Source of the DNA: a virus | Reading direction: 5' to 3' (one strand) | IMG/VR virus record: IMGVR_UViG_3300031552_000001 | Span: 64,001 to 128,000 of that record | Length of the DNA stretch: 64,000 nt | Notes under the pieces: model-generated | Database searches by the model: none | Told to the model about the DNA's origin: nothing | What the model saw: the letters and a program-made list of their open reading frames with translations, nothing else | In this document: positions 5,124 to 36,049 of the stretch, one piece after another | Position numbering within the stretch: the first letter of the stretch is position 1 | How the letters are laid out: the number at the start of each line of letters is the position of its first letter | Made by a program: the position numbers and the translations under genes

Positions 5124-8100
5124 CTAATTCGTGGGAAGATTAGGGGATGACGTAATGTCAAGATCGTCCATGGTATCCTCATAGTCTTCCTCGCTCACCA
5201 ACCCATGCTCCCTCTGTATCTCTTTAGTGGGAAGAATAACGTCCGCTCGAGGTCTTATGTAAAAAGAGGCTAGAAAACCAAATACCATCGCGTGGAATGA
5301 GTCGTCGGTCCTCCCAGCAGCGCACTTGTAAATATTCATCCTAAGCCTATCATTGTACTCCGAAAATATGTTCAACATATCTATAGCAAAAGGCTCTTCG
5401 AATTCTTCCCACCGAGGAAACCAAAATACATTAGCCCTTTTTATTGCGTTAAAAACGTCTGACATCACCTCAGTGCGGTGGCATAAATGTCTCGGCACCC
5501 CCAGCTGGGCATCAAACTTTACCTTCTTCTTAACATTACCGACCCATTGGTATTTCTTCACCTTATCAGCTCCGAAATATCTAACAAGCTCGTCATTTGG
5601 CCAAAAACCCCCTCCGTAGTCTACTCCAATTTTTTGAACGTTAAATTCTCTAACTAGGTGTCGTATCTTCTTTATTTGCACTGCGGGCTCTGATTCTACA
5701 CCTTCAAATCTATGCCAATAGAACCAAGTGAATCTCTCAGGAGCAAACGGCAAATATCCTCCTAGGCAAACTACCGTGTAACTATTCTCGCCCGACCCCC
5801 AGTCAATTCCCATGAATATCGGATACTGACTGCTGTACTGCTTCACGTCTTTATAAAACTGCATGGACAACTCGTCCCAGCAGTTTCTTCTAACATCTCT
5901 TCGAGTAAGAGGTCTGGTGCCGGAATCATAACTTCTTCCAAGAACCTCATTGTAGAACTTAGCTCTGCTGTACACTCTCTGCTTGTTGAGTATGTCGTTC
6001 CAATCCATCCACGGAACCATAAGCTGAGGTATTCTAAATCCCTCAAATGGATTCTCAGTATTAGGATTGGGGTTAATTGCGCTCCAGCAGGCGTCGGGAT
6101 CGTCAGGTCGTATAAGCTTTCTACACCGGCTACAGATAAGACCGTCCGGGCCTATATTTTCCTCATCCAAAACATTCCAATGCCAGGAGCTTCTATTTTT
6201 TGGGGTTCCGTGTCTTTTACAAGGTACCACCCATTCGTTCTGCGTAGAGAACCTAGACCAGTAATACTCTATGGAGTTGTCTAAGGATTTAGGAGTTCCG
6301 GCGTAAATAAAATATTTGAATGATGAGTGAGACGCGCACTCCTCAATAACCGGCACGTTGTCGAGCAGAATGTCTTGGAATTCATCGATAACAACCAAGT
6401 CTGAAGGAATTCCACGAGTGTTATGCACTACTAGACCGTCTGCTACAAAGCAGCCAGATTCTTCCACGGTTAAATCATATACGTCATCCACTCCTTCTTC
6501 AAACACGCCCTTGACTCGGACCCACGACCGGGACGGGTCGCATAATCCTTTCAGATAAGAATCGTTCAGTTTATAAGCTATAGATAACAGTACTCTACGA
6601 CCAATACTGTCTTTGACGTTGCCTGGTCTAAGTTGAATTCTATATCTCGTCCAAGCAGAATGAGTGCTTAGGCCGTAATGCTCTTTTAAGTACCTCCTTA
6701 ACAACGCGTAAGATACAGGAATTCTGTCTTTGTCGTCTTTGCTTCTAGTAGTCTTAACCTCACATTTTCTAAAATGCCCAATAAGGTGTAAGAGCCTCTC
6801 TGTGGGGTACTTAGTCAAAGACAACGTGTAGCTTACTTTAGCCTTTTTTGTAGACGGCCTCTTGCGATAAATAGCGCTTCGAATGCCAAAATTCCATAGC
6901 ATCCTAGCCAAGCCCTCTATCAATTCCTTGGATGCACTAGAGTATCCAGCTCTAGCCCCTCCGTCGTCAGGGCTACACCAGCCATCCCCCCAAAATAATG
7001 CCCGTAAAAAAGCGATCTTCTCCGACTTAGGGGCAGACCATATGGCACGCGGTATCTTCTTATACTCCGCTTTTTTACCGAATTCCCCTAAGCTCCATAA
7101 AAGAGCCTTAGCTCCGTTAATGCCCTGTCCTCGACGGTCGGAGTACAGCCCTACATTCCAGCACGTTTTAAACCCCGGTCTAGAGTCCTCTACTCGAGAA
7201 CCTACAGACAGCCCCACCCTACGCGCTTTTACTTCAAACTCCCTCAAGTATTTCTTGTCAGAATTTGTAAACCTAACAGAGGACGGCTTGTTACACTCGC
7301 CTTCTGCTAACATGGCCCCTATGAGCCAAGCCATGTCCTCACCAACACTCAAAAAGGCGCACTCCTTGCCTGAATGGTGCGGGGCAGCTACAAAATCGCT
7401 TTTGAGGAGGTCTTCTGCATTTACCCAGCCTCGTTGCGTAAGAATAGGGTGGTCAAAGCTGCACATTAGTGGAACAGGATAGTCAGTCTCTACTCTGACT
7501 ATCCTTTTTCTTGCGCTTAAATGGGGGTTTGTAGCTGTAGCAATATAAGGCTTACCTTCTGTTGTCGAGGTAACGACCCGAACAGCCTTTCCTGCTTCTG
7601 CTAACTCCTTAATAGAGGCCAATGACCCGTCTGCTAAGTGTATTAGGCTGCTGCCATGCAAGCATCGGTCCGCGTTCAAAAATGCAAATCGAAGAGTTAT
7701 TTGTGAGTGGTTAATGAACCTCTTCTCAAACACATTTTTGAGGAGTCGATTATTGGTAGTTTGCTTCAAGAAAGGGGAAAGCTCTATAGGCTCAGCAATT
7801 CGGTCCCTACTGAACACTTTAGTTTGTTGGTTAGAGGGACTGACATAGAGCGCTCGAAAATAAGGGTTCATAAGCAAGTATGAAAGAGACACATTTCCCA
7901 GTAGCGTGCTGTTGTGCGCTACCAGCCCCTCAACGACAAAATTATGAGTATCACCTACCTCAAAGTCTACGCACTTGCAAATTCCTACTGGGGTGATCTC
8001 GACAACCCTGTCCCAATAAAGATCGGTGTCGGTGTGCGCAGCTAAAACATCCACCAACCCTTGATCGCATAATGAATCAGACCTAAAAAAACGAACATAC

Positions 8101-9479
8101 TCCAATAACTTGTTTCGAGTGGGCGGGTACTTTAATGTGCGGCGAAGCCCATCTTTATGCAAACTCTTGCGCCTATTTTCATGCCAGTTATCTTCCCCTC
8201 TAGAAGCTAAAATCTGTGCAATTAGTTTATTGATTTCTTTCGGGTACGTATCGCGATTATTACTAGAAGAGCCCGTAGGGGGTTTTACCTTCTCAGATTT
8301 TCCTAACGCCCCTATATCTTTCAGTAGGCGTGTGGCGCCCTTCTGAGTCTCTACGCGCAGTATATAAGCGAATTTTCTTTCCCCTCTTTTCTTATAAATA
8401 GACGGCCAGTTTTCTCGTATTTTGGAAGGTATACCGAACTTCCAAAGCAGGGACTGCACCTGTCTAACAAGAAGCTTGGACATAGAGCAGTATTCTAAGC
8501 TATACTTAGACCGGCTGTTTTTCTTAATGTGGCCGTCAGTAGACCAAAGACGATTTAAAAACAGTGATGTTTGCCGCATACTAAGGTCAAACACCCAAGG
8601 CGGGATAAATTTAGTGTAAGAGCTACAATCCAGAAGCCCGTCCTCTCTCATCCATCTATAAATCTCCCCAACATGAATTTTAACTATCTTGGAACTTCGA
8701 GTTGCGTAGTCATAAATTTTACTAGAACCCCCTACATTTTTAACGTCTGAAATAAATTCTGAAAGCCTCTCTCCCGGAGTTTGCGTAAAGCACACTCCGT
8801 CTGTAAGTCCGCCGTCTCCAATCAAATAGGCAGTTAGCCTTACCCTACTTTCGGGCATTGTAACTGAACCCGTAAAGTCCCCCCCTTGCCGCACAGCAGC
8901 TATTCTGTCTCCTACTCTTAATTGAGATCCCTCCGTCCAGCCGTCCCAGGTTCTCATAGGGTGGGTTAATGCTATCTCTAAGGTACGCCCTTGCCGAGTT
9001 TTTACTCTTACACAAGGCTTTGATACCCGTTTAGACACCCAACTAACGGTACCTGAAGACAGGTGTGCCCCGTCTAGCGACATTGTTACAAGAGAGTCTC
9101 CGATCTTCACGTCCCCTGCGGCAATCAACTCCCCGTTTGCTCGGCTACACAAGCTGGAGATAGGTACGCACTTCTCGACTTGCCTTCCAGCCATCAATAT
9201 TTTGCGCTTAGAAGACGAGTTGTATATAGCTCTAAGATACTCCCTGCCTTTAAAACTGAAGTTAACTAACCTACCCCCTGAAGGGATCTTAAACGCCCCC
9301 TCCACGAAAGCAGAGGGGACGGCCGTCAACGCCCCTTCTCTCGTAAAAGAACCTATATCTATCTCCTCGTTTGCTCTTTTCTCCTTAGCCGATAAAGGAT
9401 CGTACCTATAGTCTTCCTCAGTATCGTAGAGGGAACTCGGACGGACATCAGGATTATCGGATAAGGCTACACGCAGCAT
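5124..9479 (-). CDS. terL: Terminase large subunit (GpA-like) with two inteins
   Basis: Splicing restores the Walker A region AGRQVEK|STLL and NADR|TRGIPSDLVVIDEFQD (Walker B). The C-terminal nuclease has MGIDWGSG and TDDSFHA. The start is placed at 9479 (GGAGG upstream) rather than 9548. Confidence 0.92.
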   Translation of the reverse strand: MLRVALSDNPDVRPSSLYDTEEDYRYDPLSAKEKRANEEIDIGSFTREGALTAVPSAFVEGAFKIPSGGRLVNFSFKGREYLRAIYNSSSKRKILMAGRQVEKCVPISSLCSRANGELIAAGDVKIGDSLVTMSLDGAHLSSGTVSWVSKRVSKPCVRVKTRQGRTLEIALTHPMRTWDGWTEGSQLRVGDRIAAVRQGGDFTGSVTMPESRVRLTAYLIGDGGLTDGVCFTQTPGERLSEFISDVKNVGGSSKIYDYATRSSKIVKIHVGEIYRWMREDGLLDCSSYTKFIPPWVFDLSMRQTSLFLNRLWSTDGHIKKNSRSKYSLEYCSMSKLLVRQVQSLLWKFGIPSKIRENWPSIYKKRGERKFAYILRVETQKGATRLLKDIGALGKSEKVKPPTGSSSNNRDTYPKEINKLIAQILASRGEDNWHENRRKSLHKDGLRRTLKYPPTRNKLLEYVRFFRSDSLCDQGLVDVLAAHTDTDLYWDRVVEITPVGICKCVDFEVGDTHNFVVEGLVAHNSTLLGNVSLSYLLMNPYFRALYVSPSNQQTKVFSRDRIAEPIELSPFLKQTTNNRLLKNVFEKRFINHSQITLRFAFLNADRCLHGSSLIHLADGSLASIKELAEAGKAVRVVTSTTEGKPYIATATNPHLSARKRIVRVETDYPVPLMCSFDHPILTQRGWVNAEDLLKSDFVAAPHHSGKECAFLSVGEDMAWLIGAMLAEGECNKPSSVRFTNSDKKYLREFEVKARRVGLSVGSRVEDSRPGFKTCWNVGLYSDRRGQGINGAKALLWSLGEFGKKAEYKKIPRAIWSAPKSEKIAFLRALFWGDGWCSPDDGGARAGYSSASKELIEGLARMLWNFGIRSAIYRKRPSTKKAKVSYTLSLTKYPTERLLHLIGHFRKCEVKTTRSKDDKDRIPVSYALLRRYLKEHYGLSTHSAWTRYRIQLRPGNVKDSIGRRVLLSIAYKLNDSYLKGLCDPSRSWVRVKGVFEEGVDDVYDLTVEESGCFVADGLVVHNTRGIPSDLVVIDEFQDILLDNVPVIEECASHSSFKYFIYAGTPKSLDNSIEYYWSRFSTQNEWVVPCKRHGTPKNRSSWHWNVLDEENIGPDGLICSRCRKLIRPDDPDACWSAINPNPNTENPFEGFRIPQLMVPWMDWNDILNKQRVYSRAKFYNEVLGRSYDSGTRPLTRRDVRRNCWDELSMQFYKDVKQYSSQYPIFMGIDWGSGENSYTVVCLGGYLPFAPERFTWFYWHRFEGVESEPAVQIKKIRHLVREFNVQKIGVDYGGGFWPNDELVRYFGADKVKKYQWVGNVKKKVKFDAQLGVPRHLCHRTEVMSDVFNAIKRANVFWFPRWEEFEEPFAIDMLNIFSEYNDRLRMNIYKCAAGRTDDSFHAMVFGFLASFYIRPRADVILPTKEIQREHGLVSEEDYEDTMDDLDITSSPNLPTN
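6420..7664 (-). mobile_element. Intein 2 of TerL (415 aa) with LAGLIDADG homing endonuclease
   Basis: Starts CLHGSS and ends VVHN before Thr. Block B is SFDHPI; motifs are LIGAMLAEGE and FLRALFWGDGW. Confidence 0.92.
7911..9170 (-). mobile_element. Intein 1 of TerL (420 aa) with LAGLIDADG homing endonuclease
   Basis: Starts CVPISS and ends VAHN before Ser. Block B is LTHPM; LAGLIDADG-like motifs are LTAYLIGDGG and FLNRLWSTDGH. Confidence 0.92.
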
Positions 9480-9512
9480 TAAATAGTCCTCCAAGAAAAA
9501 AGAAGACCTCTC

Positions 9513-9521
9513 TGGTATAAG
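9513..9521 (+). promoter_or_regulatory. Candidate extended -10 promoter (TGGTATAAG)
   Basis: TG-n-TATAAG ends 6 nt before the ATG at 9528, in a divergent region. A similar GGTATAAG occurs at 32742. Confidence 0.35.
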
Positions 9522-9527
9522 AGGGCC

Positions 9528-9893
9528 ATGACAACCTCCAAGAAACACCTAGCTAAAACCAGACTGCAATGGGTAGAGCATGCTCGACTAGGCATTCTCA
9601 GTGCTGTAGGGGAAGATGTCGTAAAACCCCAGTTTAGAGTATTCTCTACTGTAGATCCTCTTCGATTCATATTGAGCATTAACCTTACACTACCACTAGC
9701 AAAGAACACCAGGAAACCTCTGAGAGACTATATACGCGCATGGGCAGAAGAATTCGGCTGTGAAGTGCCTGTTATAGACATTCAAAACTCTAGAGTTCAA
9801 GCAGAGGTACTAACTAAAGAAAGAGTATGGAGTAGAGATGCAAAAGGTAAATTCACTAAGGGGGCAAGAAGGTTTGAACGCAGGCCTCGATGA
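9528..9893 (+). CDS. Hypothetical protein
   Basis: 121 aa; first gene of a plus-strand block. Confidence 0.6.
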   Translation: MTTSKKHLAKTRLQWVEHARLGILSAVGEDVVKPQFRVFSTVDPLRFILSINLTLPLAKNTRKPLRDYIRAWAEEFGCEVPVIDIQNSRVQAEVLTKERVWSRDAKGKFTKGARRFERRPR

Positions 9894-10491
9894 GTGCGGT
9901 ATGGGAGCCCTTTGCGGGCCCGTTACAGTTTGCGTTGCTGCCTTTCCGATAGGCCCATGCCCGGTAGAGGGCGTAGAAGACTCTAAGAAGCTGACATTCA
10001 AAAAGAGGATGGAGCTGGCGCCCGTTCTTATGAAGAAAGCGTCCTTCTTCAATATAGGATGGGCGCACCCCTCAGTAATAGATAAAGAGGGGCTGAGTGA
10101 GGCCTGGAGAAGAGCGAGTTTAGACGCCCTTGAGGGGCTCCCGAAAAACACCGACCTCCACATAGACGGGGTAAATACCATACAGGGGTATACGGGAGTG
10201 CAGACTGCGTACGTAGATGGAGACGACTTCATTTGGCAAATTTCCGCAGCCAGTGTGATAGCCAAAGCAGCTAGAGACTTAGAAATGATAGGAATGAGCC
10301 GATATTTTCCTCATTATAGATGGGAAAGAAACATGGGGTACGGCTCAGCAGCTCACATAGAGGCACTCATTAAGCTAGGCCCCAGCTTTTATCATCGAGG
10401 AAGGTACCTCGTCAAATTGTTTGAAAAGCATAAGGATAAAATAAACGTAGCTAAATGGGGTAAATGGATGGAATCCTGGATTCCGTACTGA
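9838..10491 (+). CDS. rnhB: Ribonuclease HII
   Basis: AGLDECGMGALCGPV, VEDSKKLT, IDG, GDD...ISAASVIAKAARD, NMGYGS..H. The true start may be slightly downstream. Confidence 0.93.
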   Translation: MQKVNSLRGQEGLNAGLDECGMGALCGPVTVCVAAFPIGPCPVEGVEDSKKLTFKKRMELAPVLMKKASFFNIGWAHPSVIDKEGLSEAWRRASLDALEGLPKNTDLHIDGVNTIQGYTGVQTAYVDGDDFIWQISAASVIAKAARDLEMIGMSRYFPHYRWERNMGYGSAAHIEALIKLGPSFYHRGRYLVKLFEKHKDKINVAKWGKWMESWIPY

Positions 10492-17450: not shown

Positions 17451-20400
17451 CTAATACGCCCAAGGGGTGTCAGAAGGCGGTTGACCGAATTCTTTTCCTA
17501 CAGCCATGCCGGGTATGGGGTGGGTACCGTGCAAAACAGACTTCCACCCTTTCGCTGCGGCATCCAGTATAGTGCTCTTCAAGCTCCTGCTTTGAAGTCT
17601 GGCAATCCAGTCAGTTTGTAGCTCCAACGGAAGCATGTTCACGCCCTGCAACACCGGCTTATACGTCACTTGTTTCTGCCCCGGCTTCAAGTTACGATTG
17701 AACGCCGCTATCTCCGAAGTAGCCGCATGATCTCCTCTAAGCAATGTGTCGTGATCTCCAGGGTCTACTACTTCGCTCAAATTAGTCATAGCCCTGACAA
17801 ACGTCTCCACATTACGTCTTCGAACAGGCCCCTCGTCTTTATATGCGTTCCAAATCTCGTCCGTTAGATACTGCTGCACAGTGTTTATATTAGTGCGCGC
17901 CAACATATCTCTTGGGTTTTTGGGGCCGTCAGAAAGAGCGTCCCCCGCCTTAACTTCTTGCCCCTTCTTTACGGATATTGACCTAGTTGCAGGCACATAG
18001 TGAGGCACGGCAGACTCTAAACTAGACGCCTTATTCGGAGACACCATGACTCTCCAGCCGCCTGCCGGGTCTTTCTCTATTTTCGACACTGACCCTTCTG
18101 TATCTGCTAAAGTAGCCGCCCCGGGAAGTTTTTTAGGCACGTTAAGCAACTGCTCCAGTCGATTAAATAGACTTGTAGCGCTAGTGCCTTTAGCTCCTAC
18201 AATTCCGCCGGTATGAAAAGAATTATGCGTGCGTATTTTATTAGCGCTAAACGCCCTACTTGCAGTAGACAAATCGTAAGTCCAACCGCTGTACTTTACT
18301 TCCCTTACAGACACCACTTTCGAATAATAAAGATCGGGATAAAGCTCTGGTCCCGCATATCTGCATAAAAAAGACCAAGCTTTTTTAAAAAGAGAAGTCA
18401 CTTTCTCAAAAACCCCAGGACTTTTAGAAGAAGACCACTCTCGAGTAATGCCTACGTATCTTCCATTGATTGCCCTTGTGTGAAAAGCAGCCTCTTGTTG
18501 TTCTTTATAAGCCTCTTTCGAAATCAGTGTGGTCCTTAAACACCCTGCGCAACTTACGAGCACCAAATCATACTTAGTGCTATTTCTATAGCCCCTAACA
18601 TCACGCACGGGTTCTGCGCATCCACAAAAACCACACTTGCCGGAGCCTGTTCTCGCCAACGTTGCGTGGTTGCCTTGCGCTATCAAGTAACTTCCGCTCT
18701 CCGTCCTCATTTCGTACATCGTATCGCAAGGCTCGTGCCTCTGTATTGTGTACACCGCGGTATATTCATACCCATCCCATACTTTTAGCCGCTCTGTAAC
18801 TTTTGTTTCCATCCCTCTATCTACAGAAACGTCGCTGTATACTTGATCCCAAAGAGATTTCAGAGTCAGTATAGATACCGCCCCGTCTGTAGTTTTTATG
18901 CGCACCTCAGAGTCTTCGGCTAAGCAGTTCATGGCTAACTGCGTTGCGGGCTCACCCAATGCCTGCGCAGCTATTACTCCGACGTTAGAGCCGGGAGAAT
19001 GTAGCTTTCCTTCTTCATTCAGACCGTAGCATTTGCTACATAAGCCCTTACCGTGAGCGCATTTTAGTGGAGATCTAACTTCCAGCTTAGTAATTTTGTT
19101 GTTTCTCAGCCGGCTCAGGAGATCGGGGGTCACTAAAGTACCTGCGGGCACTTTTCCTTTATCTATACCGGCCTTTACTCCCAAATCGATATCCTTAACA
19201 GTAAATCTGTCAAGAACGTCGTTGTTGTCTACGGGCAGAACCACGCCCTTAGTGGTGCCGCAATCATCATCCACTATCAGTTGATTCATAGCGGTATTCA
19301 CAAGATGTTTAGACATCTTACCGGGAGCCTGGGTACCCTGAACTCGGCCTATTGTGCCCATTCGAGCTCCGTGCATAGAGGCAAAGTAAGAGCCGATATC
19401 CAGCCCCTCTGAATAGGATTTAGGGATAGGGATCGGGACAGGTTCTCCCCTAGAATCGGCAACCAGCATAGGCGCCACAGTCATTTGCTTAAACTGAGAC
19501 CAACTGCCTCTAGCACCAGACTTCACCCAGTCGTACATTCTATTCTTGCTACGGTCTGCTCGTTTCTTGGCCACGCCGTGAATTTTATCTGCGGCAGAGG
19601 CATAAAGCTTTACGATCTCTTCCTTTCGTCTGATTGGACCATATGTCTTGGACCGTATTTTAGCTTCCTTGCCGGCAGCGTCTTTCAATACCTCATCTCG
19701 ATATTCACGGTCTGATAAGAAGTCATCTAGCCCAATAGACATCCCAGTAGCGTATTCGTTTCCGATATCCTTTAGCCGGTCAGCAACTACCCCAAAATCC
19801 TTCGGAGACTTCTTTGCAACTTCCGTAAGCAAAGAGTTCAAAGTCTTCTTATCGAGCATGAAAGAAGTGTCATTTAGTATCCTAGAGTCTCGAAGGTCTG
19901 TAGGTAAGGAGTGGTACAGCATAACTCTACCTACCGTAGTCTTTACGGGCCCTGCTGCTTTTTTGAACAGGGCGCCAAAGGGGTCTCCGTCCAACTCGTT
20001 TAGCTTAATAGGATCGGTAAGCCGAATACGGCCCTCCTTTACCGCTCTCGCGGCATCCGCCACAGAAGAGAAACGAACAGGATCCCTATCCTCTACTTCC
20101 GTAAGCTTATAAAGCCCCATCATTGATTCTTGAGTAGGCTTAGACATAAGGTAGCCGGTAGTAGGGCTAAACAAATTAAAGGAAGGCAGCATCTTTATCG
20201 CTTCCTTCACAGCCTTCTGACTCACAGGTACGAAAGCGCTCATTTTGTCACCGTCGAAGTCAGCGTTGAAACCCGAAGTGACTAACGGGTGGACTTGAAC
20301 AGCCTTTCCTTCAATAAGCCTAGGTCTAAATGCTTGTACTCCAAACTTATGTAAAACAGGGTCTCTCTTAATAATGATAGGACGTTCATCTACCACAACC

Positions 20401-23400
20401 TGCAAGGCATCCGCTGCCGCGGGATGGTTTTTCTTTACCATGTCTTGTGCATCCAGAGGCTTGTGCCCTAACTGCACTAAACGACGTATTACAAAAGGCT
20501 TATATAGCTCCGCCGCTGCTTTTCTTGGTAACCCTACTTCATCTAAACTAAGAGAAGGCTCAGGGGTGATAACTCCCCGCATAGACAGGTCTTGTCGCCT
20601 TCCTATGATTTTATCTTGGAAAAAACCCTCCTTAGGCTGCCCACCTTTCTCGCCAGACCCGGAGATAGTTTGCATTATAGCGTTTCTATGCTTGCCTTGA
20701 TGAACCCCTCCCGTAAGCATTACAGCTTTTAACCCGTCGTATAGAGCAGACTGAAGCTCTACTTTTTCTTCTGGGGGAAGTGCAGAATCGAACCCTTTCA
20801 GCTTCGAATTTACATGTCCTATGTGATTGTAAAGGCGGTTCACGTCATCGTACCGAATCACGCCATTATCCATAACTATGATAGGTCTGAAAACCGGAGG
20901 CAGCACCGGCAGATGCTTCATTGTGTACGCTTCAGAAGGGGACAAACCGGCCCTATCCAGGGCTCTTAGGTATTTAAGTTTTTTGTTGGCATCATTAAGC
21001 TTCGAAGCTCTAAGAGTAGGTAAACGATCTTCTATGTCTTTCTTCATCTTTTTTAGGTCTAGTGCTTTAACAGCGGCTACTATCGCTTGAGGGCCTGTCA
21101 TACCGTTTAGGCGCTCCCCTCCTGTAACTATGCGATTAAAGCTATTTTGGTTTAGACCAAGCAGAGAAGATATGGGCCCCTCAAATACAGGATTCGGCAT
21201 TCTTTCCGGAAGAGGAACATGCGACCATTTCGTACCGCGTACGCCGCCCGTAACTTTTGGATCAAATATACCTCCCACTTCCTCACGAGCATCCTTAGCC
21301 CACAACGCTCTACCCGCGTCAGCTAAGGCCCCATTGCTCATTTCTAAGACTTTTTTGTCGGTAAGGGGCTGTAGTATTAGGTTGTTACCCTCTTTGCTGA
21401 TATCTAGCCCCATTCCCTTGAGGTATCCTTCGAACTTTTTGAACACGAACGGCACTTTTGGGGTAGGCACTGAATCGCCTGCCTGTAGCTGAGTCCAAAA
21501 CTCATCGTTGAAATCCGACTTCAAGGTCTGCATTTCTCTGATGTTTTCTCTAGCGTTATGGGCCAGTAGGGCATACAGCCCCATTGCGTCCATAGTCTGT
21601 CCGCCTTTAGGTCCCCCACCGGAAGGAAGTAGGTTAGAGTCATACGCATCTCTAGATCGTACAGACAGCCCCTTATCGGCCGTATGGTGAAGCTTCAAAA
21701 TATATTGTGGGCCAGTAAGTACGTCAGGGAATTTTCTTCCCGTCTCGGGGTCATAGAGGTCCTCGGTGTCGCTCACGCCGTTCTTTTTCAGCTCATCTCT
21801 AAGATGGCGAGTGTAGTCTGTAATTTTCGGATCAAAATTATTGACGACGTAAGGCTTACCTTTTTTCTCAGCAAGCTTTGCAGCAGCAGTCTCCAACACT
21901 TGCCCCAAATTTATCCGGGTCGGGACCCCAGTCTGGTTTAGAAGCACCTCTACCGGCTTGCCTTCTTTTGTCTTAGGCATCTCGCTGTCTGGAATTACTC
22001 GAGTAACCACTCCCTTATTTCCATGACGACCAACTATCTTATCTCCCACGTCTGCGGGAACCTCGGCCCTAACATAGACGGTAGTGTTTTTTCCGTGTTT
22101 TGCTACCCTAGTGACTGTCCCGGGAACATCTTTGGTCCATCTAATCTCTCTAGGCTTCCACGGTCTAATAAGGCCTTTCGAAAATAGACCTAATTTCTGT
22201 TCGTCAGGAGTTACGTTTTCCTCCTTCAACACTCCAAATAGGATATCGTCTTTGTTTACAGTTTGTCCCTCTCTTATAATGGCGTCCTCATCCAGCTTAT
22301 CTGATTGCTCTTTCGTAACCTTACCGGCCATATAAGACATGAATTTCTTTTTATCTAACTGGATACTTTTTTCGGCCGTAACTTTTTCTCTAAATAAATG
22401 TTCGCTGTTTCCGCACCATCTAGGCTTCCCGTTCCTACGAACGTAAACGACTCCAGAGGGCACTGACACGCACCACACTTTAATAGGCTCTTTAAGTTTT
22501 GTAAGCTTGAGTTTAGAAAAATCAGAGGCATTAAGGTGAGGCGAGTGTTCCTCTCCAAGTATTGATACTCGGTAGGAATCTACCGTAGCGGTTACTACTT
22601 CTCCAGTAGACTTTGTAGAGGAATAGCCTGCTTTGCAGTGAATGGACCAATTAGCAGAGTACCCGCAGTGTAACGCTAACCGCTGCACATCGTCTCGTAG
22701 TCGAACACTAGAGGTAAAATATGACCCCTTCTTTTGCATAGAAAGTCCGCCGTCCCCTAAAAGCAGACCTTCCAAAAGTATGCGCGACTGCCTTTGGCTC
22801 AAAGACCAAACCCATTCTGGTAGGTACTTATCTACGGCTTTACCAAACTGACTAAGATAAGACGCCGCTTGCTTGCTAGACCAAAGCCAACGATCGCAGC
22901 TAGCCAAAGTCCCAAACCCTAACCGGGACGAAAGCTCTTTCAGAACTTTTTTTACTCTAGGCTTAAACTGCCGTATCGAGACCTTCGGGGACTTTTCGTT
23001 GCCCCCTCCTTTATAATCGCAGTGACCCTCTGCAATATACAACCCGAACAACAGGCACCAGTCGTCCATGTTTATAGAAAGTGGAGAGATTTCACGAGAA
23101 TTATATTCAGGACCATGGGGGTTACATTTTCTTATCGACGGCAACCTAAAGACATCTTGATCTGGGCCCGCATTCTCTGCTGTGCGAAGTAGTCTAACTC
23201 TTTTATTTAATAAAAGACTAGCTTCTACTTTTTCGAACACCTTCTTCTTAGACGGACTGACGTACAGTTTATGAGTAGGCGTAACGCAAATATCAAATTG
23301 ACGAGAGGAAGCCATCGCCATTGTGTCTGACAATCCATCATGAAACTCTATTATGCTTTGGTAAGACAGTTTTCCATCTTGAAGAGAAGCCACAAGGTCG

Positions 23401-25421
23401 GATTTTCTCAACTGATCCCTTGTTAACCACCCTCTGTTACTAAGAATCTCTGTACGGGCATCAAAACAGGTAAGTTTTTTAGCGGCCGTCTCAGACACCA
23501 CCACCCCGTCTTCGAAGTTCAACCCCTTCCACGGCATATAAGCCACTCTAAGATTCGTGCCCAGCGCCAGGGTGCCGTTCTTAGTAAAATTGATGTCAGC
23601 AACCACCTGCCCAGATGATACGTTGTCACCTACTTTAACCAAGGGGGTGCTGCTAAGAACACTTTTGTCGTCATTTAGAGGATAGTCATCGTACAGTTGA
23701 ACTTCTTTTTTCGACCCGTCTTTTGCCTTAACGATTATTGCATCTTTTTTAATCGACTCTACAACTCCATTAATGGGCGAGACGTGGCTTACAAAAGCAC
23801 CTAAACCCTGCTCAAAAGTGCGAGAGGGGCTATCACTTCTTGTCTGCACAAGAGGCTCCTCTCTGTCCTTTAGAGACACCGCCTGCTCTAATTGCCGAGA
23901 GGCGACCATAGTTCTATTGCCTTGGTTGTTTTGCAAAAACGGAATGATGTTTGCGGACAAGTCGAACATGCCTTTACTTGAAGCCAGTACGTAGTCTACG
24001 TCCTTTGGCTTCAGTACAGTCACCGTACCCTCCGAATCGGACACCTTCACAGAGTCCTTAACCGGCACGGGCTTACCCGCCTTCCATTCATATTGATCGG
24101 GGAATGCTAAATTAGACTTGAGAGCCTGATAGGGGTTTATGAACTCCCTTTTTCCAGTCTTCACGTTGAACACCGGAATTTTTAAGTCCTGGCCGTCCTT
24201 CACCACATGGGAAGCAAGCTGAAGTGTGACGCCGATGCGATCCGATTCTGGCGTATGGATTGGGTCCAAGAACCCTAAATGACTGGGGTTAATGGACTGA
24301 GCTTCTAGAGAAACCTCGTGGGTGGATTTGATCCCTCCCTCACCTGGAGCAAAAAGAGTAGTTCTACGATTACCTGAAATAAAACTTATAGGGTTGGTTT
24401 GAGTCGGTCTTTCAGACAGCACGGAACTTACAAAGAACTTGCGCAGGGGCTTACCAAAAACGTCGGGGTTGATAATGTCCCTAACTCGATCGTGCTTGTC
24501 TAACGTATTCCCTATCTTTCTTTTTACCCCTTTTTCTACCTGCCATTTCTCTAAACGCTCATTTATAAGGTCTTCCGCTGAGTAAAGATCCTTGAAGGAC
24601 AAGGAGTCTCTATCATCAGGCTCAACTTTTTGTTGAGACACCTGTAAGATTTTTTTGGAGCCCGCCAATAAAGACGCACCGTTGACTTTATCGTAGGGCT
24701 TCCCCAGTGTTAATTGGGTTGAGTCCGGGCGAAGCACCGTCTTATCAAACTCGCCTATAACTAACTTCTTAGCTTCTTCTACCGTTTCTGGATTAGAGCC
24801 TCTAACCGCTCTATAGAACTTTCTGAGAGCGTTCTCAGCATTTGTGCTCTTGTTAGCGCTCAGAATATCCTTTCCCCATGTTCTTTCTATGGAGTCGTCA
24901 TCTACCCCCATCGTCTTCAGAATAGGGTAAAGAGGTATTTGGGCCTCTCCATAGCGAAGGGTCATTTTTTGAGTTTTCGGACTGAAATCCATATCAAACG
25001 CCTTGCCCTTGGCTAGATTCCACTGAGAGGTGAGTTCTCCATTTCTTCGAATTCTGGTATAAACCCCCGACTTCATTCGAAATAGGTTATTTACCTGCCA
25101 CTCACTGCCATTGACGATATAGCTATAACGGCGAGTTATTTTTGGTAATTGAGCGACATTGACCACCTGTTTATCAACCACCTTACCTGTACTTTTATCC
25201 TTAAGCTCGAGTTCCGCGCGTATCGGAACAGTCCAGCTTCTGCCTTTTATTCTTGCGTCCTTTTGCTCTCGTATGTCGTCTATGTCCTTGTCGTCATCTA
25301 CCCACACCTTCTTTGCTACAAGAGTGTGCTGTTTTCCCTCGATAGGGAAATAATTCTGGATAGTACGAGCCGTTCTTTTTTTGAGACTCTCGAAAGCCTC
25401 TTCAGGAGAATAGTGCGCCAT
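17451..25421 (-). CDS. rpoBC: Single-chain DNA-directed RNA polymerase (beta-beta' fusion) with two inteins
   Basis: Beta motifs: NFEDG, GDKIVGRHGNKGVV, PTRINLGQVLE, KLHH. Beta' motifs: KIIGRRQD, RDPVLH, FNADFDGDKM (~20247-20267), GEPATQL, CGT...C.HGKGLCSKCYG. There is no stop codon at the beta/beta' junction (~21390). Confidence 0.95.
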   Translation of the reverse strand: MAHYSPEEAFESLKKRTARTIQNYFPIEGKQHTLVAKKVWVDDDKDIDDIREQKDARIKGRSWTVPIRAELELKDKSTGKVVDKQVVNVAQLPKITRRYSYIVNGSEWQVNNLFRMKSGVYTRIRRNGELTSQWNLAKGKAFDMDFSPKTQKMTLRYGEAQIPLYPILKTMGVDDDSIERTWGKDILSANKSTNAENALRKFYRAVRGSNPETVEEAKKLVIGEFDKTVLRPDSTQLTLGKPYDKVNGASLLAGSKKILQVSQQKVEPDDRDSLSFKDLYSAEDLINERLEKWQVEKGVKRKIGNTLDKHDRVRDIINPDVFGKPLRKFFVSSVLSERPTQTNPISFISGNRRTTLFAPGEGGIKSTHEVSLEAQSINPSHLGFLDPIHTPESDRIGVTLQLASHVVKDGQDLKIPVFNVKTGKREFINPYQALKSNLAFPDQYEWKAGKPVPVKDSVKVSDSEGTVTVLKPKDVDYVLASSKGMFDLSANIIPFLQNNQGNRTMVASRQLEQAVSLKDREEPLVQTRSDSPSRTFEQGLGAFVSHVSPINGVVESIKKDAIIVKAKDGSKKEVQLYDDYPLNDDKSVLSSTPLVKVGDNVSSGQVVADINFTKNGTLALGTNLRVAYMPWKGLNFEDGVVVSETAAKKLTCFDARTEILSNRGWLTRDQLRKSDLVASLQDGKLSYQSIIEFHDGLSDTMAMASSRQFDICVTPTHKLYVSPSKKKVFEKVEASLLLNKRVRLLRTAENAGPDQDVFRLPSIRKCNPHGPEYNSREISPLSINMDDWCLLFGLYIAEGHCDYKGGGNEKSPKVSIRQFKPRVKKVLKELSSRLGFGTLASCDRWLWSSKQAASYLSQFGKAVDKYLPEWVWSLSQRQSRILLEGLLLGDGGLSMQKKGSYFTSSVRLRDDVQRLALHCGYSANWSIHCKAGYSSTKSTGEVVTATVDSYRVSILGEEHSPHLNASDFSKLKLTKLKEPIKVWCVSVPSGVVYVRRNGKPRWCGNSEHLFREKVTAEKSIQLDKKKFMSYMAGKVTKEQSDKLDEDAIIREGQTVNKDDILFGVLKEENVTPDEQKLGLFSKGLIRPWKPREIRWTKDVPGTVTRVAKHGKNTTVYVRAEVPADVGDKIVGRHGNKGVVTRVIPDSEMPKTKEGKPVEVLLNQTGVPTRINLGQVLETAAAKLAEKKGKPYVVNNFDPKITDYTRHLRDELKKNGVSDTEDLYDPETGRKFPDVLTGPQYILKLHHTADKGLSVRSRDAYDSNLLPSGGGPKGGQTMDAMGLYALLAHNARENIREMQTLKSDFNDEFWTQLQAGDSVPTPKVPFVFKKFEGYLKGMGLDISKEGNNLILQPLTDKKVLEMSNGALADAGRALWAKDAREEVGGIFDPKVTGGVRGTKWSHVPLPERMPNPVFEGPISSLLGLNQNSFNRIVTGGERLNGMTGPQAIVAAVKALDLKKMKKDIEDRLPTLRASKLNDANKKLKYLRALDRAGLSPSEAYTMKHLPVLPPVFRPIIVMDNGVIRYDDVNRLYNHIGHVNSKLKGFDSALPPEEKVELQSALYDGLKAVMLTGGVHQGKHRNAIMQTISGSGEKGGQPKEGFFQDKIIGRRQDLSMRGVITPEPSLSLDEVGLPRKAAAELYKPFVIRRLVQLGHKPLDAQDMVKKNHPAAADALQVVVDERPIIIKRDPVLHKFGVQAFRPRLIEGKAVQVHPLVTSGFNADFDGDKMSAFVPVSQKAVKEAIKMLPSFNLFSPTTGYLMSKPTQESMMGLYKLTEVEDRDPVRFSSVADAARAVKEGRIRLTDPIKLNELDGDPFGALFKKAAGPVKTTVGRVMLYHSLPTDLRDSRILNDTSFMLDKKTLNSLLTEVAKKSPKDFGVVADRLKDIGNEYATGMSIGLDDFLSDREYRDEVLKDAAGKEAKIRSKTYGPIRRKEEIVKLYASAADKIHGVAKKRADRSKNRMYDWVKSGARGSWSQFKQMTVAPMLVADSRGEPVPIPIPKSYSEGLDIGSYFASMHGARMGTIGRVQGTQAPGKMSKHLVNTAMNQLIVDDDCGTTKGVVLPVDNNDVLDRFTVKDIDLGVKAGIDKGKVPAGTLVTPDLLSRLRNNKITKLEVRSPLKCAHGKGLCSKCYGLNEEGKLHSPGSNVGVIAAQALGEPATQLAMNCLAEDSEVRIKTTDGAVSILTLKSLWDQVYSDVSVDRGMETKVTERLKVWDGYEYTAVYTIQRHEPCDTMYEMRTESGSYLIAQGNHATLARTGSGKCGFCGCAEPVRDVRGYRNSTKYDLVLVSCAGCLRTTLISKEAYKEQQEAAFHTRAINGRYVGITREWSSSKSPGVFEKVTSLFKKAWSFLCRYAGPELYPDLYYSKVVSVREVKYSGWTYDLSTASRAFSANKIRTHNSFHTGGIVGAKGTSATSLFNRLEQLLNVPKKLPGAATLADTEGSVSKIEKDPAGGWRVMVSPNKASSLESAVPHYVPATRSISVKKGQEVKAGDALSDGPKNPRDMLARTNINTVQQYLTDEIWNAYKDEGPVRRRNVETFVRAMTNLSEVVDPGDHDTLLRGDHAATSEIAAFNRNLKPGQKQVTYKPVLQGVNMLPLELQTDWIARLQSRSLKSTILDAAAKGWKSVLHGTHPIPGMAVGKEFGQPPSDTPWAY
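18222..18926 (-). mobile_element. Mini-intein B in the RNAP beta' trigger loop (235 aa, no LAGLIDADG, Zn-ribbon insert)
   Basis: TQLAMN|CLAEDS...IRTHN|SFHTGG; internal CGFC...CAGC. Confidence 0.88.
22407..23468 (-). mobile_element. Intein A in the RNAP beta part (354 aa, LAGLIDADG, ends CGN)
   Basis: KKLT|CFDART...RWCGN|SEH; motifs LFGLYIAEGH and LLEGLLLGDGG. Confidence 0.9.
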
Positions 25422-33685: not shown

Positions 33686-36049
33686 GTGACCTCTTACCGA
33701 TACTTAGTTAAGGACCCAGACAAGGCGTATATATCAAACAATCTGTGGCTCCCCAAAAAATCAATAAACCAGTCAGTAGTAAAAGCTGCCCTTACCTTCT
33801 CTCTCAATGATGAAGAAGTGGTAGTAGACGAGCTTACCGGGGAGGCCATAGGCACAAAAACAAAAACCTTACGATTATGGGACGAGACAGAGCGTCACAT
33901 TATCACCCCCAAAGAATTTATTTCTCCTAGCAACTACCCCAACTTCCCGTGTGAATTTGAACAAATACCTCCTCCAGATTTCGAACAGGTACGAATAGAT
34001 GATCGTATAGAGCTAAGAAATGAAGAGCAACAAAGAGCGTACGAGGCCCTGTTACAAGACGGAAACGGCACACTGCACGTAAGTTGCGGCAAAGGGAAAA
34101 CGGTAATCGCGCTAAAAGTTGCCGCCACCCTTAAAGTGCCCACTATTGTGATAGTAAACAGCACGGCCTTACTTGAGCAGTGGAAAGAGGAAATAACAAA
34201 ACACTTGGGAGTACAAAGCATAGGGGTTCTACAAGGGCAACTACAGGACTGGAAAGGGCGCCCTATCGTGTTGTCTATGGTTCACACTCTTTCAAATAGA
34301 AGAAAGATGTGGTCTTCGGACTTCAAGCGTTACTTCGGGTTAGCGATATACGATGAGTGCTTTACTTCTGACACTTTAATTGACGACACTCCCATACAAA
34401 AAATTAGGGTAGGTGATACTGTTAGCAGTTACTCTGAAGCAGATGAAAGCCTATGCCGAAAAAAAGTGCTGCGTGTATTCAAGAAAAAACCCTTCAAACT
34501 CATAAGAATACAAGCCGAAGGCAAAAACGTAATTTGCACCCCCAATCACCCTTTCTTGACTGAAAAAGGGTGGGCTAATGCGGAGAACTTGACATGCGGG
34601 TCTGTGGTGCTATGCGCCATAAAGCATCGAAGCTTTATAGGAAAGGAAGGAAGGCGTGACCCCTCCAAAAGTCATAGTCTCTGTTTGCAAAGAGTGCGGA
34701 ACTCAAACAGTAAAAACGGGAAAAGCTGGGTTAGAGCAAGTGAGAAGGGGCGCAGTGTACTGCTCCCGACAATGCGCTCAACGTCACCTACATCGGGAGA
34801 GATCAAAGAGGATGTCAGAAACAAATCGAAAATACGCCTCAGAGAGAATGAAAAAGAACAACCCGATGAAAAGAAAAGAAGTGCGCGAGAAAATGAAATC
34901 TACACTAAGGGCGATGGGGTGGAAGCCCCCTGTTCAAGGAGGGAACGGAAGAACTCCCCCGGCGGCTCAACAGCTTTTAGCTTGCGCCCTGGGCTGGCCC
35001 ATGGAAGTAGCTATTGGGATTCAAAACGCGAGGGCAAAGCACAGCGCGAATGTATACAAACTCGATATCGGGAACAGGGCGTTGAAGCTGGGAATAGAAG
35101 TAGACGGGTATTCCCATTGCTCCCTTACGAGAAAAAAGCAAGACAAGAAGAAAGAGAAAATCTTAGCTGGGTTAGGGTGGACAGTATTGAGATTCTCGAA
35201 CCGGGAAGTGACGGAACATTTGGCGGATTGTGTCCAGACGGTTTTGTCTACAATCTCGAAGTTGAAGATACGCACACCTACTTAGCCAATGGTTTTGTAG
35301 TTCATAATTGCCACCACATGTCAGCTCCTGTTTTTGTACTAAGTGCTGACATGTTTTACGGAAAAAGAATTTCCCTGACTGCTACTGCTTCCAGAACAGA
35401 TGGACTAGAGACCGTTTACCAGTATCATCTGGGCAGAGTGATTCACAAAAATTTGTCGCAAGACCTTATTCCTCATACAGTTTTTCATGTGCTTCACTGG
35501 AAAATGCCTCCTGAGCACAAAAAGCTGGTCATAGATCGGAATAAAGAAGTAAGTACCCCCCGAGTTAGGACTTACCTTGGAAAGCTAGAGTGGAGAAATA
35601 ACCTAATCTACGAATACCTGGCCCAAGATCTAAAAAACGGAAGAAGTATTTTGGTGCTGAGCCACAGCGTAGACCATGTGGAAGTATTGCATAACTACCT
35701 GAGTGCGGCCGGGGCAGGTATGATTGTAGGAAAAACCCCTCAAGAAAGCCGAATGGCTATTTTGAGAAATGGTAATCCCGTATTTGGTACTTTTCAGTTA
35801 GCTAGAGAGGGATTAAATAAGCCCTCTCTAGATACCCTGTATGTGGTCACCCCTTTCAATAACTCCAACGACCTGCAACAGGCTTGGGGGCGAATTCAAC
35901 GAAGACATGAGGGTAAAAAGGAGCCTCTAATCAGGGTTTTTGAAGACCGGGCGTTTCAATGCTGTTTTAGGTCTTGCCGAGGACTACGAAACGTTCTTAA
36001 GAAGTTCGGCTATCCGTACACGAAAGAGGAGTGGGTAAAGTATGAGTGA
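33686..36049 (+). CDS. Superfamily 2 helicase (UvsW/Rad25-like) with an intein in motif II
   Basis: SCGKGKT; YDE|CHH after splicing; LTATASRTDG; REGLNKP; QAWGRIQR. Confidence 0.9.
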   Translation: MTSYRYLVKDPDKAYISNNLWLPKKSINQSVVKAALTFSLNDEEVVVDELTGEAIGTKTKTLRLWDETERHIITPKEFISPSNYPNFPCEFEQIPPPDFEQVRIDDRIELRNEEQQRAYEALLQDGNGTLHVSCGKGKTVIALKVAATLKVPTIVIVNSTALLEQWKEEITKHLGVQSIGVLQGQLQDWKGRPIVLSMVHTLSNRRKMWSSDFKRYFGLAIYDECFTSDTLIDDTPIQKIRVGDTVSSYSEADESLCRKKVLRVFKKKPFKLIRIQAEGKNVICTPNHPFLTEKGWANAENLTCGSVVLCAIKHRSFIGKEGRRDPSKSHSLCLQRVRNSNSKNGKSWVRASEKGRSVLLPTMRSTSPTSGEIKEDVRNKSKIRLRENEKEQPDEKKRSARENEIYTKGDGVEAPCSRRERKNSPGGSTAFSLRPGLAHGSSYWDSKREGKAQRECIQTRYREQGVEAGNRSRRVFPLLPYEKKARQEERENLSWVRVDSIEILEPGSDGTFGGLCPDGFVYNLEVEDTHTYLANGFVVHNCHHMSAPVFVLSADMFYGKRISLTATASRTDGLETVYQYHLGRVIHKNLSQDLIPHTVFHVLHWKMPPEHKKLVIDRNKEVSTPRVRTYLGKLEWRNNLIYEYLAQDLKNGRSILVLSHSVDHVEVLHNYLSAAGAGMIVGKTPQESRMAILRNGNPVFGTFQLAREGLNKPSLDTLYVVTPFNNSNDLQQAWGRIQRRHEGKKEPLIRVFEDRAFQCCFRSCRGLRNVLKKFGYPYTKEEWVKYE
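34358..35308 (+). mobile_element. Intein (317 aa) in helicase motif II, lacking an in-frame endonuclease
   Basis: CFTSDT, block B CTPNHPF, block F VYNLEVEDTHTY, ends VVHN before Cys. Confidence 0.92.
34656..35285 (+). CDS. DUF559/Vsr-like endonuclease with Zn finger and NUMOD3-like segment, nested in the +1 frame of the intein
   Basis: CKECG...YCSRQC; KNNPMKRKEVREKMKS; YKLDIG...GIEVDGYSH...DKKKEKILAGLGWTVLRFSN; purine-rich AGGAAGGAAGG before the GTG. Confidence 0.85.
   Translation: MTPPKVIVSVCKECGTQTVKTGKAGLEQVRRGAVYCSRQCAQRHLHRERSKRMSETNRKYASERMKKNNPMKRKEVREKMKSTLRAMGWKPPVQGGNGRTPPAAQQLLACALGWPMEVAIGIQNARAKHSANVYKLDIGNRALKLGIEVDGYSHCSLTRKKQDKKKEKILAGLGWTVLRFSNREVTEHLADCVQTVLSTISKLKIRTPT

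Follow-up and report, generated by a model that had tools for sequence, protein, structure and literature searches.

Introduction

Endonuclease genes that lie within inteins but outside the intein reading frame have recently come to light in phage genomes. Gosselin, Arsenault and Gogarten (bioRxiv 10.1101/2025.01.02.630785) described actinophage inteins that carry antisense LAGLIDADG genes, antisense VSR-like genes or same-strand, frame-3 endonuclease VII-like genes, the host genes encoding DNA polymerase, a minor capsid protein, terminase and thymidylate synthase. In the current study, we performed a computational analysis of a comparable element in a 64,000-nucleotide (nt) stretch of viral DNA (positions 64,001 to 128,000 of IMG/VR record IMGVR_UViG_3300031552_000001, hereafter referred to as the window), where an intein in a helicase gene is overlapped on the same strand by a +1-frame open reading frame (ORF) for a putative homing endonuclease. 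The source record is that of a jumbo phage, which is metagenome-derived, 192,137 bp in length and rated as 100% complete by CheckV.

Three further lines of work are relevant to this element. Dassa et al. 2009 (PMC2677866) reported Vsr-like or GIY-YIG endonuclease genes located between the halves of split inteins, mainly in phages and in genes for DNA metabolism, with a 3' overlap of 6-69 bp with the C-terminal intein half, and such invasions were predicted in that study. The prototype of the EDxHD homing endonucleases, I-Bth0305I, resides in a group I intron of recA and possesses NUMOD-type helix-turn-helix modules (Taylor et al. 2011, PMC3239194; PDB 3R3P). Finally, Arsenault et al. 2025 (PMC11855218) described the ShiLan-type insertion, in which an out-of-frame HNH ORF with a GTG start occupies a stop-free insertion in a phage methylase.

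Results

A nuclease gene overprinted on a helicase intein

The intein of the window is located inside motif II (the DExH box) of the helicase, in the arrangement YDE|C...VHN|CHH, and we consider it likely that it represents a mobile motif-II (DE|xH) intein of a jumbo-phage superfamily 2 (SF2) helicase whose homing endonuclease is a separate, +1 overprinted cistron and not an in-frame domain. The core of this reading, i.e. a separately translated endonuclease gene that would lie out of frame in, and be sheltered by, a contiguous intein, is supported because the +1 register is conserved, the nuclease frame bears the mark of purifying selection, the intein frame avoids stop codons, and relatives occur in free-standing, split and mini-intein form. 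Such a sheltered gene had been put forward in the original prediction, and these observations uphold it; the coordinates given there for the helicase ORF, the intein (34358-35308), the +1 ORF (34656-35285) and the shared segment were likewise found to be correct when checked on the sequence.

Frame 0 contains no stop codon across 34358-35308, where the third frame contains 29, and the +1 ORF is open for 630 nt, which agrees with the earlier statement that both frames are stop-free. The role of chance was assessed by fixing the nuclease protein, resampling its synonymous codons and counting the stops that arose in the intein frame. Approximately 8-12 such stops would be expected in the window (11.8 under extein codon usage, for which P(0) is ~8e-7), and the probability of finding none ranged from 3e-4 to 8e-21 per locus. 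For a stop to appear in the intein frame, a nuclease codon with T as its last base must be followed by one that begins with AA, AG or GA. In the window, T occupies the third position of 0 of the 41 nuclease codons that precede AA, AG or GA as against 31 of the 114 elsewhere, while among 72 non-redundant, independently assembled loci, which include isolate phage genomes and were drawn from 91 loci compared first, stop-creating junctions number 0/3306 against 3045/9115 (33%) elsewhere. The exteins of the same genes served as a control and exhibited no avoidance, with T at the third position in 29.9% of codons before AA, AG or GA and in 29.3% elsewhere. The complete lack of stop-creating junctions across loci, combined with the flat extein control, therefore excludes sequencing error and chance. 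A fortuitous double ORF resulting from purine-rich composition was considered separately and was ruled out by the resampling, the junction counts and the extein control.

The nuclease frame is under strong purifying selection in the core of the overlap, as judged from the proportions of nonsynonymous (pN) and synonymous (pS) differences or their rate ratio (dN/dS) in pairs of loci: pN was 0 and pS 0.23 between L003 and L007, dN/dS was 0.14 between L008 and L009, and the window and L004, its closest relative, gave a pN of 0.15 and a pS of 0.79. Nucleotide differences cluster at the third position of nuclease codons. In the same core the intein frame resembles the third frame, with 38% identity in both (window-L004) and an apparent dN/dS above 1, and this middle part of the intein frame evolves like non-coding DNA apart from its strict avoidance of stops. 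The comparison of homologues that had been proposed earlier as a check on frame-specific selection and stop avoidance thus returned purifying selection on the nuclease frame and not one stop-creating junction.

Folded parts of both proteins are predicted to be encoded together only within ~125 nt (35159-35285), corresponding to the last ~40 nuclease codons. Both AlphaFold2 models are confident in this stretch, with pLDDT values (predicted scores of the local distance difference test) of 86-98 (block means) for the intein and 94-98 for the nuclease, the latter falling to 76 in the last nine residues. Here the entropy at nuclease codon position 3 amounts to 1.20 bits as against 1.61 before, variability at nuclease positions 198-202 is mostly lower in the intein-frame residues than in the nuclease residues, and the window and L004 are 95% identical in the intein frame and 82% in the nuclease frame. 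The same bases encode the intein strand VRVDSIEILE (35171-35200) and the nuclease motif LGWTVLRFSN (35172-35201), and intein block F overlaps the nuclease tail, precisely as first noted. The original prediction had, however, proposed true dual coding over 630 nt; this description fits the ~125 nt at the 3' end and not the remaining ~500 nt, in which frame 0 is an unconstrained, stop-free linker. Overall, its core reading stood, while it overstated both the extent of dual coding and the novelty of the arrangement.

Table 1. Features of the helicase locus (positions in the window).
Feature	Position	Strand	Description and basis
Helicase precursor ORF	33686..36049	+	787 amino acids (aa), SF2 helicase (ResIII + Helicase_C) split by the intein; ORF list
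N-extein	33686..34357	+	Last residues YDE of motif II; alignment A1 with intein-free allele P0002 (YDE-AHH)
Class-1 intein	34358..35308	+	317 aa, frame 0, Cys1 ... His-Asn; Pfam Intein_splicing 4.8e-15
N-terminal splicing (Hint) half	34358..34633	+	Intein residues 1-92; beta strands, AlphaFold2 pLDDT 93-98
Frame-0 linker	34634..35158	+	Intein residues 93-267; predicted disordered, the nuclease gene being read through here without a stop
Purine-rich Shine-Dalgarno-like run GGAAAGGAAGGAAGG	34640..34654	+	Directly 5' of the nuclease start codon; read from the sequence
Homing-endonuclease ORF (putative)	34656..35285	+	+1 frame; 209 aa from a GTG start to a TAG stop that lies 23 nt short of the intein end
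Four-Cys zinc ribbon	34686..34775	+	C11, C14, C36, C40; conserved in alignments A2 and A4
Vsr-like/DUF559 catalytic core	35043..35255	+	Residues ~130-200; conserved columns, profile and Foldseek matches
Dual-coding stretch	35159..35285	+	Intein C-terminal strands to most of block F (frame 0); nuclease last strand and helices (+1)
C-extein	35309..36049	+	First residue Cys+1 nucleophile (CHH, completing the DExH box), then Helicase_C; Pfam and A1

Conservation of the layout among relatives

In 89 of the 91 loci compared first, the host frame, at -1 with respect to the nuclease, is open, block B (T..H) being located upstream and VHN|C downstream. In the survey of 72 loci, the N-terminal intein boundaries were placed with a simple motif rule and a few of them may be inexact, the frame and stop statistics being independent of where they lie. 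The nuclease ORF is located wholly inside the intein in the survey loci, its stop always 8-65 nt before the intein end, and nuclease and intein therefore travel as one unit. Scanning IMG/VR with the nuclease alignment yielded at least 282 relatives, while a profile search of prokaryotic metagenome-assembled genome (MAG) contigs, employing a 12-sequence alignment, returned the same register in all 16 full-length matches. Each of the 40 GenBank phage records that match the nuclease places it under a single helicase-type coding sequence (CDS) and none has a separate CDS for it. By tblastn, the same layout was identified in Corynebacterium phage phi673, Pseudomonas phage MR14 and also Vibrio phage K391, with 42-45% identity of the nuclease, and in all of these the helicase is annotated as one CDS. 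Vibrio phage CP-T1 is a further cultured carrier.

The hosts of the wider family comprise ResIII/Helicase_C, XPB-like, SNF2-like and DinG-like helicases and, in one case, a subunit of the clamp loader, and the element nearly always enters directly after xDE. The clamp-loader case (L005:2100-4319, IMGVR_UViG_3300036764_000334) harbours the intein and its +1 nuclease, here with four zinc-ribbon repeats, in a DnaX-like AAA+ gene (LLDE|C...VHN|CHML), and it looks like an extein switch between ATPases that have a DE-x-H Walker B motif in common. Three further loci (L108, L111 and L112) have VHN|SSI after the element in place of VHN|CHH, which would imply a Ser+1 nucleophile and a different host protein. 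In L061:814-3969 the helicase contains two inteins, a canonical LAGLIDADG intein upstream and an overprinted Vsr-like one at motif II.

The helicase and its intein

The helicase ORF matches Pfam ResIII (7e-14) and Helicase_C (4.5e-7) as well as PHROG 16, DNA helicase (2.5e-39). Intein-free relatives of this helicase are ~467 aa in length and align across the insertion site without the intein (YDE-AHH in P0002 against YDE|intein|CHH in the window), the best identity, to P0002, being 81% over the C-extein and 80% over the spliced protein. All class-1 residues are present in the intein, namely C1 (34358), TPNH of block B and the terminal VVHN followed by Cys+1; C1, T61, H64 and N317 are invariant in an alignment of 54 sequences (A3), in which H316 is retained in at least 90%. 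Blocks A and B are conserved in alignments of relatives, and the match to Pfam Intein_splicing (PF14890; E-values of 1e-14 and 4.8e-15, 55-56 bits against a cut-off of 35.8) is divided into an N-terminal and a C-terminal part.

The two ends of the intein, the second comprising residues 268-317 (block-mean pLDDT 86-98), are predicted to form a complete class-1 Hint splicing domain. The linker between them was modelled with a pLDDT of only ~44-55 (44-52 for residues 100-265), its sole secondary structure being a short helix at approximately residues 102-104, and the original view of an intein that has a disordered middle and no in-frame nuclease is thereby substantiated. The linker is missing from two natural mini-intein alleles at the same site (P0057 and P0080). 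The disordered model, the non-coding-like evolution and the existence of mini-inteins devoid of this middle part all suggest that it is a stop-free spacer and not a second functional protein segment. The combination that marks a fractured gene, a stop after the N-terminal intein half (IntN) and a restart before the C-terminal half (IntC), is absent from the window; since the host frame has neither stop nor restart, the intein forms one contiguous unit for which splicing in cis is to be expected, as opposed to the split inteins of Dassa et al.

The nuclease and its start

The nuclease matches Pfam DUF559 (PF04480; 8e-11, 42 bits against a cut-off of 20.6), 1996 library proteins match it at E <= 1e-3, and its AlphaFold2 model has a mean pLDDT of 92.1. 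At its N-terminus is the four-Cys zinc ribbon, which is probably a DNA-binding module: C11, C14 and C36 are invariant and C40 is retained in at least 90% of the 62 sequences of A2, all four are invariant in A4, and relatives have between one and four copies of the ribbon. A conserved, unclassified helix (TNRKYAS.RM..NNPM) is followed by an RGGNG motif. The catalytic core contains the invariant or nearly invariant residues K135, D137, E148, D150, H154, D163 and GW.V.RF.N, of which E148, D150, H154 and D163 vary little or not at all among 62-72 sequences and have E, D, H and D of 3HRL as their aligned counterparts. While a phmmer search of the PDB with the single protein retrieved 3HRL only, the link to I-Bth0305I emerged by profile and fold searches: the family profile matched 3HRL (DUF559, 2e-10) and 3R3P (the I-Bth0305I catalytic domain, 3e-3), and both were the top Foldseek matches of the model with a probability of 1.00, the Vsr structures 1VSR and 1CW0 being ranked lower. 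Based on these profile and fold matches, the nuclease belongs to the Vsr-like/EDxHD lineage (Dassa et al. 2009, Taylor et al. 2011). Of the composition first proposed for the +1 protein, the four-Cys zinc finger and the DUF559/Vsr-type core could thus be retained, whereas the NUMOD3-like element could not, as no Pfam match to NUMOD3 was obtained in the nuclease at E <= 0.1.

The start codon lies 2-33 codons before the first CxxC in 71 of the 72 non-redundant loci and is ATG in 65 of these, and the GTG of the window aligns with the ATG of L004. A Shine-Dalgarno (SD)-like motif precedes the nuclease start in 50 of the 72 loci compared to a background of 24%, often within intein codons for D-E-V. 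The presence of its own start codon, the enrichment of SD-like motifs and the GTG/ATG alignment would point to independent internal initiation.

Sporadic occurrence and evolutionary states

In the helicase clade to which the window belongs, 110 of the 120 proteins are intein-free, six have the full element, two a mini-intein and two a different intein at Walker A. The latter (P0070 and P0084) define a second insertion site (S|CGKGKT), with an in-frame HNH domain in P0084 and a mini-intein in P0070. In the extein tree the eight alleles with a motif-II intein require eight state changes, and the nearest single relative of each is intein-free, one such pair being separated by a distance of only 0.03. 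This sporadic pattern is what would be expected of an element that is actively homing or repeatedly lost.

Relatives of the nuclease were encountered in several other states. L080:1500-4200 has a free-standing nuclease gene directly upstream of an intein-free DEAH helicase, and L087:1500-3771 contains a true split intein, the N-terminal half of which ends in a stop and is followed by the nuclease in +1 and by a C-terminal half restarting at MFKRVESVEIY. In a metagenomic relative (L010:588-2893, JGI 3300037810; P0123), the N-extein, IntN and nuclease form a 496-aa fusion in a single frame, overlapped by 31 nt by the C-extein ORF, whose own frame still continues across the nuclease with no stop; the fusion reflects a frameshift of recent date, an error in sequencing or a step on the way to a split intein. 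Five prokaryotic MAG contigs (L114, L115, L126, L131 and L169) retain only the C-terminal part of the nuclease, e.g. residues 174-209 at 75% identity, and such a fossil persists because this part is co-encoded with the C-terminal strands of the intein. The family holds all states of the gene-breaking model, i.e. free-standing, overprinted contiguous, IntN fusion, split and mini-intein.

Other inteins and genes of the window

A 1474-aa ORF at 5124-9548 (-) encloses two inteins of the canonical type, whose LAGLIDADG domains are in frame (Intein_splicing 5e-25, LAGLIDADG_3 2e-31). A plus-strand ORF within that gene (6883-7482), tested as a possible hidden alternative-frame ORF, has no Pfam match. 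A mini-intein with an in-frame Cys-rich insert is found at 18222-18926 (-), within a giant RNA-polymerase ORF (17451-25421); it contains no hidden ORF, the other five frames each having at least nine stops across the region. In-frame, mini and overprinted inteins are consequently all represented in the genome of this one phage. An RNase HII homologue (9838-10491 (+), Pfam 6.5e-27) lies between the structural and replication gene blocks.

Discussion

Based on the findings of this study, the following mode of action may be proposed for the element. Ribosomes on the helicase mRNA would read through the element to yield a precursor that splices in cis to a helicase of ~470 aa, as all catalytic intein residues are present, while a small fraction of ribosomes would initiate internally at 34656 and produce the free nuclease. 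During co-infection, the nuclease would cut intein-free alleles of the DE|AHH type, the repair of which would copy intein and nuclease together, i.e. homing. The co-encoded 3' segment may furthermore 'frame-lock' the register, since no simple pair of indels brings the nuclease in frame without harming either its catalytic C-terminus or the C-terminal strands of the intein, and such a lock would explain both the strict +1 relation and the persistence of the overprint across a large and old family. A broader proposal, which we advance tentatively and regard as a little closer to doubtful than to probable, is that the +1 overprint is a stable, selected end-state of a very large family that targets the DExH/Walker-B motif of many ATPases, and not a transient stage towards a split or in-frame intein; it would be frame-locked by the 3' segment, and the dosage of the nuclease would be set by internal initiation at SD sequences within intein codons, which helicase-translating ribosomes occlude.

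A number of observations weigh against the interpretation of the locus as a mobile intein with an internally initiated nuclease. The nuclease of the window starts with GTG and the nearest AGG is just 1 nt away, RNA folding around the start is nothing unusual (z = 0.30), and no sigma-70-like promoter was identified before the nuclease ORF, although promoters of another kind may serve this phage. Precise loss would account for the sporadic distribution as well as gain would. Nuclease, N-terminal intein half and exteins were also compared through their pairwise identities, which are weakly correlated (Spearman r of 0.06-0.17); this comparison is given no weight here because the identities are saturated and some boundaries approximate. 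Expression, cleavage and splicing are inferences from sequence for the window phage and its relatives alike, and the frame-lock idea is an inference as well.

Several alternative explanations were considered in the light of these data. As the window stems from a metagenome-derived virus record, two compensating indels, introduced by assembly or sequencing, might be held responsible for displacing an ordinary in-frame endonuclease domain; yet the same +1 register recurs in the 72 independently assembled loci, isolate phages included, stop avoidance is perfect, and the nuclease C-terminus overlaps the conserved C-terminal strands of the intein, such that no in-frame version can be reached by two indels. 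The shifted in-frame nuclease is thus effectively refuted, and we regard such an artefact as next to impossible. It is improbable, too, that the +1 ORF is a decaying relic in what is now a mini-intein with a junk linker, its nuclease being no longer made or active in the window phage. Homing endonucleases often degenerate after fixation, the GTG start of the window would be in keeping with decay, and mini-inteins as well as truncated nuclease fossils occur among the relatives, but the window ORF is intact with all conserved catalytic and zinc-binding residues, its model reaches a pLDDT of 92, strong purifying selection is evident on the nuclease frame even in the comparison with its closest relative, and most alleles of the clade are intein-free, meaning that targets still exist. 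Pseudogene decay was on the whole counted as excluded, only this small weight being left to the relic.

The manner in which the nuclease is made and the benefit it confers are also open to other interpretations. The single-frame fusion encoded by L010 is exactly the product that would result if a +1 ribosomal frameshift from the intein frame, and not internal initiation, gave rise to an N-extein-IntN-nuclease protein. L010 may, however, reflect a simple mutation or sequencing error, a +1-frame stop is present just upstream of the nuclease start in the window, and the start codon close to the zinc ribbon in 71 of 72 loci and the enriched SD-like motifs favour initiation at the nuclease's own start, so that we deem frameshifting improbable. 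Free-standing phage endonucleases can act in marker exclusion or on host DNA, and the nuclease may by analogy have been co-opted to cut the genomes of competing phages or of the host, a possibility with which the free-standing nuclease beside the intein-free helicase of L080 is consistent, as is the higher average conservation of the nuclease compared with the intein or the exteins. Co-option is, nonetheless, similarly improbable as the principal role, given that the ORF always lies wholly inside the intein and travels with it and that sporadic presence among near-identical exteins is a classic homing signature; moreover, it is compatible with homing and does not exclude it.

Endonuclease-in-intein overprinting is more than a curiosity of a few actinophages, as this one family is present in no fewer than 282 stretches of IMG/VR and in 40 phage records of GenBank. 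As none of the GenBank phage records searched has a separate nuclease CDS, phage annotations probably lack an entire class of mobile nucleases. The co-existence of all stages of the gene-breaking model of Dassa et al. means that cultured phages can be used for a direct test of how split inteins originate. The element also offers an unusually clean natural case of overlapping genes, in which one frame is under full constraint, the second is free except for having to avoid stops and a short segment is dual-coding, and it might supply compact inteins that splice in cis and tolerate long inserts, as well as new Vsr-like site-specific nucleases.

Full-text literature searches brought up no account of a (DExH-)helicase intein with a Vsr-like endonuclease in the +1 frame of the same strand. 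The original prediction regarded the architecture as undescribed, a claim that no longer holds since out-of-frame and antisense endonucleases in inteins were reported by Gosselin et al.; it is the combination of same strand, +1 frame, Vsr-like nuclease and DExH helicase that appears to be new, the general layout having been described in 2025. Like the inteins of Gosselin et al., the element has a contiguous intein frame with an open and unstructured middle and a complete endonuclease in another frame, and the proposed origin, invasion of the intein by a free-standing endonuclease gene, is the same. It differs from their three types in that a Vsr-like nuclease is encoded on the same strand in the +1 frame, in that its hosts are DExH helicases and one clamp loader across many phage groups, and in that the last ~40 codons of the window ORF overlap the C-terminal splicing strands. 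With the fractured genes of Dassa et al. it shares the nuclease lineage, the position in the intein and the 3' overlap, L087 being exactly that arrangement, whereas the nuclease gene of the window is fully overprinted and not intergenic.

The nuclease resembles I-Bth0305I in its Vsr-like catalytic fold (the top structural match, with a probability of 1.00 and a TM-score of 0.60 by target) and in combining a modular N-terminal DNA-binding region with a C-terminal nuclease, but the present family employs one to four zinc ribbons and resides inside an intein in an overlapping frame, and the sequence similarity is weak. In common with the ShiLan-type insertion, it is a hidden out-of-frame endonuclease ORF for which the host frame is kept stop-free; that insertion, however, encodes an HNH nuclease without a splicing domain, whereas here the nuclease is Vsr-like and a complete intein would remove the insertion from the protein. 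Compared to canonical LAGLIDADG and HNH inteins, the element has the same Hint splicing ends and likewise interrupts a conserved catalytic motif, while the endonuclease, in those inteins a part of the intein polypeptide, would here be a separate protein read from a different frame.

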